Assembly: GCA_042571515.1 (NCBI GenBank)
Contig: JBHPHX010000001.1
Span: forward strand, 75,508 to 111,678
Origin: Patescibacteria group bacterium
GTDB lineage: Bacteria > Patescibacteriota > WWE3 > UBA101185 > UBA10185
Length of the DNA: 36,171 nucleotides
Direction of reading: 5' to 3'
In this document: positions 2,301 through 3,062 of the stretch, piece by piece
Numbering within the stretch: position 1 is the first letter of the stretch
Layout of the letters: each line of letters starts with the position of its first letter
Made by a program: the position numbers and the translations under genes
The notes under the pieces: generated by a model
The model's input: only the letters and a program-made list of their open reading frames with translations
Databases searched by the model: none
Told to the model about the DNA's origin: nothing

Positions 2301-3062
2301 TTACAAAACCAATATGAAATAGGCAACAACTAATCCAGTTGCTACTATCATGAAGGTTAGGAGAAAATTAAATACTACTACCTTTCTAATAGAGGGGGAT
2401 GCCAAAGGGTTTCGTCCTAAAGCCTCCACACTACTACCAGAAATCTTACTGAAGGTCGAAAAGCCAATAATAAGGGTGGCCACAACAATTAAGAGTGCGG
2501 CAATATATCTTAGGGAAGCCAGGGGTGATAAAAAGGGGGAGGATTCACCACTAAACAATGCTTCAAGGAGATTCTTAGTTAGGGGGTCTTTTCTAAAATT
2601 GGCCTTTATGTCAACTAAAACGGCAATTTCACCTGTTGCTGTTGGGTCGCTGGAAGAAAAGTCCTCAAGAGCCACGCCTACCACACTTCCACCTTGGCTG
2701 GCTTTCTGGCCAACCCCCGGAGTTTCCGAAGAGGTTATGAAATCCCCTACCTTTATATCTCCTCCAGCGGAATTTACTTTGACCAAAAGTTCTCCTTTAT
2801 CGGTGACTAGCACACTATCACCTTCCGCTAAATCCTGATCTTGTAAGTACACCGCGGGGTCTGTTGTTACAACACCAAACATACCCTCATCATATGTTTG
2901 GGAGCTCAGTACATACTGCCCATCAATGTAGCTAATTATGTGTCCTTCTTCAAAGTTTTGATTGTTGGTGGGAATAGAAACAGCAAAATCAAATGATCCA
3001 GCAAAGACCAAGCCCGGAACAAACAATACTGCAAGAGTTATCAGGAATTTGGACAGCTTCAT
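2301..3062 (-). CDS. Signal peptide + extracellular IMC/peptidase-G2-like domain + C-terminal ATP synthase subunit-c-like helical hairpin
   Basis: [21 protein letters not shown] signal peptide; [30 protein letters not shown] domain; two TM helices joined by a [10 protein letters not shown] loop (c-subunit RNP loop). First gene of the ATPase-like operon. Confidence 0.65.

Follow-up and report, generated by a model that had tools for sequence, protein, structure and literature searches.

A subunit c-like hairpin without the ion-binding carboxylate, joined to a predicted ectodomain, heads an F-type ATPase operon lacking subunit a in Patescibacteria

We analysed a 36,171-nucleotide stretch of DNA (hereafter the window; C1:75508-111678) from a WWE3-type Patescibacteria genome of 557 kb in 31 contigs, estimated to be 75.5% complete, with the focus on one gene at 2301..3062 on the reverse strand. 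Its product, here called the fusion protein, has three parts: a signal peptide, a beta-tulip ectodomain of ~130 amino acids (aa) and a C-terminal two-helix hairpin resembling subunit c of ATP synthase. The hairpin has neither Asp nor Glu where subunit c binds its ion, and the gene heads a same-strand operon with the order c-like, b, delta, alpha, gamma, beta, epsilon, in which no gene resembles subunit a. Our results indicate that this operon is a distinct paralogous F-type machine and not a decayed ATP synthase, and that systems of this kind generally combine an F-type ATPase that has no subunit a with a c-type hairpin devoid of the carboxylate and an ectodomain varying from ~50 to 2500 aa. 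The best reading of this architecture is ATP-driven mechanical work on surface proteins, exerted as torque on their ectodomains; we infer it from comparison, it fits every comparative result, and we consider it somewhat probable.

A distant relative of subunit c and its missing carboxylate

Single-sequence searches linked the fusion protein to subunit c faintly. A Pfam search at E≤1 returned no match to PF00137, whose gathering score was not passed, two NCBIfam subunit-C models were reached at E 0.02-0.04, and PHROGs gave one weak match to a scaffold protein; 3 of 120 family members reached PF00137 at E≤0.01. Because single-sequence Pfam and NCBIfam results were weak or empty for the fusion, b-like and delta-like proteins, profiles were needed. 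With a profile of 120 family members, the best seven matches of a PDB sequence search were all c subunits (E 9.7e-4 to 0.11), and 4bem, entitled 'F1FO ATPase c2 subunit', was among the PDB matches. Profile-profile comparison by hhalign against six canonical c subunits of related Patescibacteria genomes gave a probability of 88% (E 3e-6, 50 columns), and BLASTP of the fusion protein against one canonical c gave E 2e-4. In addition, a hairpin-only profile of 30 sequences, run against 301 genomes, detected canonical c open reading frames (ORFs) of 73-115 aa in dozens of genomes, with per-genome E of 4.5e-11 to 1e-6, and these adjoin a subunit-a gene where coordinates were compared.

Structural comparison agreed with the profiles. 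The AlphaFold2 model of the fusion protein, built with 120 homologues, has a mean predicted local distance difference test (pLDDT) score of 90.6 and consists of a helix at residues 2-13, an all-beta domain at 26-151 and hairpin helices at 180-217 and 219-252. In an all-against-all fold comparison of residues 174-253, F-type c subunits ranked top (Z 10.4-9.7, root-mean-square deviation (rmsd) mostly 1.3-2.6 Å), led by the bovine subunit 6z1r_K (Z 10.4, rmsd 1.6 Å, 74/74 residues), the mycobacterial 4v1f_A (Z 10.3) and the Spirulina 2wie_A (Z 10.2, 26% identity), with generic helical hairpins below them at Z ≤9.5; since helical hairpins can gain high Z by chance, these values serve as corroboration and not as proof. 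The ESM Atlas model of the fusion protein matched a PF00137 cluster at TM scores of 0.75/0.89.

As in AtpE and other PF00137 proteins, the N-terminus of the two-helix hairpin lies outside, and its cytoplasmic loop carries R-(N/Q)-P. The R, N and P of this loop are invariant, in 120/120 and 266/266 family members as well as in 30/30 aligned hairpins, and the loop is the most conserved segment of the protein (mean majority-residue frequency of 0.80, against 0.59 for the ectodomain), hairpin and loop both being more strongly conserved than the ectodomain. The loop Arg lies 37 residues from the C-terminus in canonical c and in 260 of the 266 family members, so that the alignment of the second transmembrane helix (TM2) is gap-free; a 6-residue gap relative to c subunits falls in the first helix (TM1) of the PDB profile alignment. 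In this lineage, TM1 lacks the GxGxGxG motif of canonical c, unlike the hairpins of larger proteins described below, which retain a Gly-rich TM1. A preliminary description of this DNA, made from the sequence alone, had proposed a c-like hairpin with a c-type polar loop, and the profile, profile-profile and fold comparisons agree on it; the region that it had marked, 2301-2520, covers exactly the hairpin and the stop codon. It had also made its proposal depend on a structural match to AtpE, which was found, c subunits being the best hairpin fold matches. As judged by sequence and modelled fold, the hairpin is a true but distant relative or descendant of ATP synthase subunit c.

The ion-binding Glu of the c subunits, in the position that we take to be equivalent to Asp61 of E. 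coli, stands opposite Phe237 in three alignments (PDB profile, hhalign and BLASTP). We surveyed this position in 269 family proteins, down to ~31% identity. In 266 of them the RNP loop stands as far from the C-terminus as expected; three with a truncated or extended C-terminus were left out of the count. Neither Asp nor Glu occurs at the carboxylate offset, 20 residues from the loop Arg, in any of the 266 family members, of the 30 hairpins aligned from genome loci or of the nine hairpins that end large proteins, and the residues found there in the 266 include Phe (106), Ile (47), Leu (38), Ala (30), Val (25) and Gly (7). An acidic residue anywhere beyond the loop is present in 22/266, mostly at offset 9 on the edge of loop and membrane, with one D and one E at offset 15, and the sole acidic residue among the nine large-protein hairpins is the penultimate residue of one of them. 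Thus the preliminary claim that TM2 has no Asp or Glu was borne out (residues 227-253 contain neither), as was its expectation for an AtpE-type alignment scored at the Asp61 equivalent. Two polar residues of TM2 are conserved in this lineage, Asn232 at offset 15 (236/266) and Thr236 at offset 19 (219/266). This pair is not retained in the distant and large-protein groups, and no mid-membrane polar site is conserved in common by the family, the 30 hairpins and the nine large-protein hairpins.

A paralogous operon and its distribution in Patescibacteria

Profiles identified the two genes that follow the fusion gene as stator components. The b-like protein, in a profile of 19 orthologues, had ATP synthase subunit b as its best match (E 5.7e-7), with further b chains amid coiled-coil noise, and its transmembrane region is without a conserved charged residue. 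The delta-like profile, of 12 orthologues, matched ATP synthase delta best (E 4.5e-7), with delta, b-delta or OSCP chains in 18 of its top 20 rows. Neither protein had a Pfam match as a single sequence. Gamma, beta and a short epsilon, consisting of the N-terminal sandwich only, follow alpha downstream of the window, and in beta the Walker A, the catalytic GERTREG segment and the DNIYRF segment seem intact. One alpha/beta pair and one hairpin gene are present in the genome; at 75.5% completeness, no match to subunit a (PF00119) or canonical c (PF00137) was found anywhere in it. The alpha frame is broken by a run of seven G at 45..51, where a +1 shift leads to an in-frame TAA, and resumes one base off, while its orthologues are single ORFs of ~500 aa that read ...RWG(V/-)... 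at the break point. The frameshift may be an assembly error or real. A different genetic code for the locus, suggested by the shortness of the alpha ORF, was considered and rejected, as the break is a +1 shift in a G run and table 11 leaves the nearby 2541-aa ORF open.

Of 20 related loci, 18 share the order fusion-b-(delta)-alpha-gamma-beta-epsilon, the two exceptions being a lone second fusion copy in one genome (G002; G numbers denote genomes and L numbers loci) and the G019 locus. Subunit a and canonical c occur together in 6 of 41 relatives, and three of these six (G008, G020 and G026) carry the fusion operon too, with two alpha/beta pairs each, one beside a and c and the other beside the fusion gene. 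We built a maximum-likelihood tree from 47 alpha and beta sequences. The canonical alpha sequences group into one clade and the canonical beta sequences into another, both with a Shimodaira-Hasegawa-like approximate likelihood ratio test (SH-aLRT) support of 100 and both apart from the fusion-linked sequences; fusion-linked beta is monophyletic at a support of 67 only. The tree covers Patescibacteria sequences, and the canonical, WWE3-type and distant F1 clades have no settled branching order in it. The fusion-linked subunits score low against NCBIfam models (alpha, 370 bits vs a cut-off of 484; gamma, 54 vs 194; epsilon, 37 vs 67), beta being the only one to pass (478 vs 463), and the canonical Patescibacteria alpha and beta of a relative reach 690 and 773 bits. 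The fusion-linked alpha and beta also fail the cut-offs of the N-ATPase models TIGR03324/TIGR03305 (341 vs 750.5, 426 vs 752) and of the mycoplasma F1-like models MMOB1660/1670 and MSC_0618/0619 (356 vs 600, 245 vs 520, 372 vs 850, 391 vs 570).

The family of the fusion protein numbers 1084 proteins at E≤1e-3 in a 90%-clustered collection. A whole-library search gave 5267 representatives at E≤1e-3, in the weaker part of which some match the ectodomain alone, and 170 at E≤1e-30. Record labels of family members include WWE3, Levybacteria, Woesebacteria, Amesbacteria and Shapirobacteria, plus clearly automatic labels, and some members are labelled 'ATP synthase F0 subunit C' or COG0636 by annotation pipelines. 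The survey then turned to 301 Patescibacteria genomes (completeness of 90% or more in 300), each searched with three models: the hairpin profile, one built from the fusion-linked gamma, and PF00119. Non-canonical hairpin proteins were present in 56/301 genomes, 48 with ORFs of 256-378 aa at E≤1.8e-14 and 8 with proteins of 497-2589 aa. The divergent gamma was found in all 56 of these, a hairpin protein in 56 of the 57 genomes with the gamma, and neither in 244. The carriers are spread over dozens of family labels. Subunit a, belonging to a canonical operon elsewhere in the genome, was detected in 37 of the 57 carriers and not found by PF00119 in the other 20, which include the single-contig genomes G328, G203 and G243; in searches of relatives, the 897-kb single contig G017, classed as complete_curated, likewise showed the carrier pattern without subunit a. 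In the loci examined, PF00119 never matched within such an operon.

The preliminary description had further suggested that ion transport is lost while the rotor contact is kept. The loss is supported in part, by the family-wide absence of the carboxylate and by subunit a not being found here or in 20/57 carriers. Three points go beyond that description, namely that the machine is a separate paralogue coexisting with a normal ATP synthase in 37/57 carriers, that the stator subunits b and delta are kept, and that the ectodomain is shared with giant surface proteins.

The ectodomain, giant surface proteins and neighbouring genes

The best fold match of the ectodomain is the C-terminal fragment of phage phi29 gp12 (3gqh_A; Z 13.7, rmsd 2.4 Å, 115 of ~130 residues, 20% identity), and capsid cement or decoration proteins of several phages gave Z 9-11.6; Foldseek matches had E 1.7e-4 to 1e-3. 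Pfam gave weak matches to cement families and to Peptidase_G2; because the cement matches stayed below cut-off, the beta-tulip likeness holds at the level of fold and not of family membership. Sequence identity to the phage proteins is 12-20% only. ESM Atlas neighbours of the ectodomain are collagen-like, FG-GAP and Peptidase_G2 fibre proteins (TM score ~0.8). Phage beta-tulip domains assemble as trimers. Unlike them, the ectodomain is cellular, membrane-tethered and shared with giant Patescibacteria surface proteins.

One such giant protein is encoded next to the operon and divergently from it (Table 1). Near aa 110-135 its translation contains a hydrophobic stretch of ~20 residues, most simply read as a single predicted transmembrane helix, and beyond this lie repeated fibre-like segments and a weakly K1-lyase_C-like C-terminus. 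It is odd to find a DNA-binding fold at the inner, cytoplasmic end of such a protein. Between positions 1 and 3400, promoter-like and terminator-like sites occur about as often as expected by chance (8 vs 8.5 and 2 vs 3.1, respectively) and the divergent intergenic region contains two short inverted repeats only, so no operator for the MerR-type domain can be claimed. The giant protein carries its own copy of the ectodomain, which shares 36% identity with that of the fusion protein over 106 aa in BLASTP (E 3e-13). A giant ORF with a homologous N-terminus adjoins the fusion gene in 14 of the 20 related loci, and the ectodomain commonly recurs in giant ORFs, of up to 6895 aa, across the phylum.

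We also looked at ten loci whose fusion homologues are more distant (E 1e-15 to 1e-24) and have an IGRNPL(S/A) loop and no acidic residue at the site; six of these loci hold the same kind of operon. The remaining four, in G268, G233, G300 and G092, have the fusion gene separated from the ATPase operon: it is directly beside a same-strand giant gene in the first three (2055, at least 1267 and 1982 aa, respectively) and 3.6 kb from a giant gene of 1760 aa in G092. Elsewhere these four genomes have a b-delta-alpha-gamma-beta-epsilon operon without a c-like gene, and a canonical a-containing operon is also present. In this set of loci (L124, L128, L130, L131 and L132-L135), the operons sit behind a conserved upstream gene whose N-terminus reads like that of a cysteine-desulfurase-type enzyme.

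In other Patescibacteria (G047, G043, G299, G107, G086, G065, G274 and G057; L136-L152), the hairpin ends proteins of 497-2589 aa. These hairpins have a LEAIGRNP(L/F/M/Y)AK loop in addition to the Gly-rich TM1, and no acidic residue at the c-type TM2 site. The hairpin proteins of 664 aa (G299), 760 aa (G274) and 497 aa (G057) each directly precede an F1-like operon without subunit a, a 2571-aa hairpin-ended protein is encoded four genes upstream of b-delta-alpha-gamma-beta-epsilon in G047, and those of 2589 aa in G043 and at least 1685 aa in G107 adjoin further giant genes. Beside the giant hairpin protein in G047 (L147) and G043 (L151) are three genes for proteins of 521 aa, ~300 aa and 399 aa with 4-5 transmembrane helices; in G047 they stand between the giant hairpin gene and the F1-like genes, and an ABC/FtsX-like pair was guessed among them from size and topology.

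The start of the fusion gene was set by comparison with a database entry. Counted from the first TTG at 3089, the ORF 2301..3089 (-) has 262 aa; the identical database protein P0001, of 253 aa, begins at a Met nine codons downstream of this TTG, and the gene was therefore taken as 2301..3062. The hairpin is the C-terminal 70 residues of P0001 (window 2304-2513). In the linker that precedes it, N164, F177 and P180 are nearly or fully invariant in the family alignment.

Table 1 Features of the fusion gene, its operon and the divergent giant gene (window positions).
Feature	Position	Strand	Remarks
c-like fusion gene	2301..3062	-	253 aa + stop (P0001)
Signal peptide, residues 1-21	3000..3062	-	hydrophobic N-terminus ending VFA/G; model helix 2-13; predicted cleavage
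Beta-rich ectodomain, beta-tulip-like, residues 22-155	2598..2999	-	model pLDDT mostly >94
Juxtamembrane linker, residues 156-183	2514..2597	-	conserved; model pLDDT lower, 62-72
TM1 of hairpin, residues 184-205	2448..2513	-	without GxGxGxG motif of canonical c
Cytoplasmic loop, residues 206-226	2385..2447	-	R-N-P invariant; most conserved segment
R-N-P motif of loop, residue 217, N218, P219	2406..2414	-	
TM2, residues 227-253	2304..2384	-	no Asp/Glu
Phe237, codon TTC	2352..2354	-	at c-subunit carboxylate position
Subunit b-like stator gene	1583..2329	-	248 aa; one N-terminal transmembrane helix, then long helical region
Subunit delta/OSCP-like gene	1122..1586	-	154 aa; profile of orthologues
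F1 alpha, first 372 codons	41..1159	-	continues in other frame past left edge of window
Giant surface protein gene	3335..10960	+	2541 aa; divergent from operon; N-terminal MerR-type helix-turn-helix (HTH) at aa 17-53; 7 FG-GAP repeats
Ectodomain copy in giant protein, ~aa 2118-2236	9689..10042	+	family profile E 1e-19

Several other gene groups were noted in the window. A glycogen-type cluster at 15611-22387 (-) contains a GalT-like gene, two starch/glycogen synthases and two GH57 genes; this set is also described for WWE3 RAAC2 in the account of that genome (PMC3812714), and its presence here supports a WWE3-type origin of the window. DNA-uptake genes, also on the minus strand, encode DprA (12819-13688), a ComEC-type competence protein (32138-33136) and a ComEA-like helix-hairpin-helix (HHH) protein (33129-33779). 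A second protein with an HTH_17/MerR-like N-terminal domain (312 aa) is encoded at 22435-23373 (-), and the ORF at 13741-14361 (-) has a weak match to an IS200-like Y1 transposase (E 8.5e-6). Genes for MreB, a PEGA-domain protein and a sortase lie together at 24313-27222; they are envelope-related and near the surface-protein locus.

Possible function and comparison with known systems

In F-type ATPases, moving ions across the membrane depends on the carboxylate of the c-ring and on subunit a with its Arg; gamma and epsilon grip the c-ring at the R-(Q/N)-P loop and b2-delta holds alpha3beta3 still. The system described here keeps all elements but the two for ion transfer, and the loop is the most conserved segment of the fusion protein. 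The simplest reading is ATP-driven torque without ions. The hairpins would form a c-ring-like rotor gripped by gamma and epsilon at the R-N-P loop, and alpha3beta3, held by b2-delta, would hydrolyse ATP so that gamma and epsilon turn the hairpin ring. With neither carboxylate nor subunit a, no ion would be moved and the torque would act beyond the membrane, on the ectodomains. In the lineage of the window, the small beta-tulip module may dock to the like module of the neighbouring giant FG-GAP protein, and the rotor is probably coupled to that protein because it carries the same module. Elsewhere, where giant ectoprotein and hairpin are a single chain, the giant protein would itself be part of the rotor subunit. 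The likely output would be movement, twisting or tensioning of surface adhesins, for attachment to host cells or motility on them. More tentatively, Patescibacteria might carry an ATP-driven surface rotary motor of a class not characterised before. In it, an F-type ATPase that has no subunit a would spin or torque a ring of ion-blind hairpins, from which ectodomains project out of the cell, be they 130-aa modules that dock giant adhesins or fibres of 2500 aa fused to the hairpin itself; adhesins would thereby be moved, twisted or reeled in, for attachment to host cells or movement on them.

A number of points weigh against this reading. Ring formation, the contact with gamma and epsilon, rotation, ATPase activity and expression are all predictions, and helical hairpins can gain high Z by chance. 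A trimeric beta-tulip does not obviously fit a ring unless the stoichiometry is a multiple of three, 8-15 giant chains sharing one ring is a difficulty, and so is the lack, without subunit a, of an evident brace for the b stalk beside the rotor ring. If the alpha frameshift is real, the copy of the machine in the window is inactive. The distribution is not perfectly regular either: only the fusion gene and b were found in the fetched G019 locus, two hairpin genes occur in some genomes (G002, G113, G321 and G180), and G315 (130 contigs, 94% complete) has the divergent gamma without a hairpin match. The line for the divergent gamma (E≤5.7e-42), which delimits the 57 genomes, was drawn after the score gap had been seen, and two borderline genomes were left out of the set, G131 (1.1e-38, beside a 135-aa hairpin ORF) and G178 (9.3e-38). 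The survey counts are descriptive, as related genomes are not independent. Moreover, G025 (99% complete) has a fusion-like protein (G025:C5:10986-11708) and, at the thresholds used, no hairpin-profile match, no divergent gamma and no subunit a; its lineage may have lost the ATPase.

The persistence of a fusion-like protein without the ATPase in G025 would also suit a static anchor or assembly platform, in which the hairpin oligomerises and anchors the ectoproteins while the F1-like ATPase acts without sustained rotation, for example as an ATP-dependent switch, as a chaperone of assembly or insertion, or in inside-out control of adhesins. The hairpins end very different ectoproteins, of 130-2589 aa, and the hairpin gene is apart from the ATPase operon in four genomes, both of which are compatible with such a platform. 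So is the best fold match of the ectodomain, the phi29 gp12 C-terminal fragment. This fragment reportedly is an assembly autochaperone. A platform of this kind, however, leaves unexplained why gamma, epsilon, b and delta are all retained in every operon examined, why the R-N-P loop facing gamma and epsilon is invariant, and why hairpin and divergent gamma occur together in 56/56 genomes, and we regard it as unlikely though worth keeping in view.

Far less probable is that the enzyme is still an ion-translocating ATPase or synthase, with an unconventional ion site and an unrecognised partner in place of subunit a. The polar residues Asn at offset 15 (236/266) and Thr at offset 19 (219/266) are candidates for such a site, some members are annotated 'ATP synthase F0 subunit C', and the passage of Kantor et al. 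2013 (PMC3812714) on a related operon leaves the ion question open. Against this, no member has an acidic residue at the site, the Asn/Thr pair is not retained in the distant and large-protein groups, the b-like transmembrane helix is without a conserved charge, PF00119 was not found in 20/57 carriers including closed genomes and never in the operon, and a normal ATP synthase is also present in 37/57 carriers. A decaying, functionless ATP synthase remnant is hardly credible: subunit a and the carboxylate are gone, the alpha gene in the window is frameshifted and the genomes are small and reduced, but the family, more than 1000 proteins strong, has invariant motifs, 18/20 loci have intact orthologous operons, hairpin and loop are conserved above the ectodomain, and the system is found in many families of the phylum and alongside the canonical enzyme.

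On the preferred reading of torque without ions, the closest counterpart of the machine in mechanism would be an F-type ATPase running as a hydrolase, except that a surface structure takes the place of ions as the load. Compared with AtpE, the hairpin has the same 37-residue distance from Arg to C-terminus and is encoded with b, delta, alpha, gamma, beta and epsilon; it differs in that Phe237 replaces the ion-binding Glu/Asp, in that TM1 of this lineage has no GxGxGxG, in the signal peptide and ~130-aa N-terminal ectodomain, and in having no subunit a partner. In Acetobacterium woodii and some archaeal A-type rotors, part of the c hairpins are carboxylate-less, which is a precedent for such hairpins in a rotor ring. 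Those rings keep the carboxylate in other hairpins as well as subunit a, whereas here every hairpin is without it.

Closest in purpose is the F1-like ATPase of Mycoplasma mobile gliding (PMC11864180, PMC8406192), in which F1 alpha/beta paralogues reportedly have a role other than ion-coupled ATP synthesis, and giant surface proteins have been proposed to receive the force. The fusion-linked alpha and beta score substantially against MMOB1660/1670 but, as given above, below the cut-offs (356 vs 600, 372 vs 850). To our knowledge, the mycoplasma F1-like systems have no b, delta or any c-like subunit. The system described here, unlike them, keeps the whole rotor and stator except subunit a, and its surface domain is fused to the rotor subunit.

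An operon of this kind has been remarked on before. Kantor et al. 2013 (PMC3812714) described an 'unusual' ATP synthase operon in WWE3 RAAC2, whose membrane subunits were without significant homology and whose putative c was shared with OP11/WWE3 genomes, and left its function, direction and ion open. It is most likely the same system. The passage in question assumed a, b and c subunits, and it is silent on the missing carboxylate, the absent subunit a, the ectodomain, the paralogy and the giant proteins. Apart from that remark, the literature covered, in which subscription-only papers such as Wrighton 2012 and supplements were outside the scope, gave no account of the missing carboxylate, the absent subunit a, the paralogy, the ectodomain or the link to giant proteins.

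When ATP synthase genes are found in Patescibacteria, they are routinely interpreted as evidence of an ATP synthase coupled to the proton-motive force, and complex V is called 'frequently retained' in a review (PMC13293708). About one in five of the sampled high-quality genomes (57/301) carry the variant without subunit a in the operon and without the carboxylate. For the 20 of these 57 in which no subunit a was detected, metabolic reconstructions would therefore wrongly credit chemiosmotic ATP synthesis or ion pumping; the lineages affected include WWE3 and parts of Microgenomates. Both the invariant RNP loop and the fused ectodomain could be used directly as handles in cryo-electron tomography, pull-down and rotation assays. 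If the mechanical reading is true, it would suggest a function, open to testing, for the giant surface proteins that are typical of these episymbionts, and it would add a new case of a rotary ATPase redirected to extracellular work, and thereby a third route, besides flagella and the mycoplasma gliding motor, from the rotary ATPase lineage to an engine of motility or adhesion.

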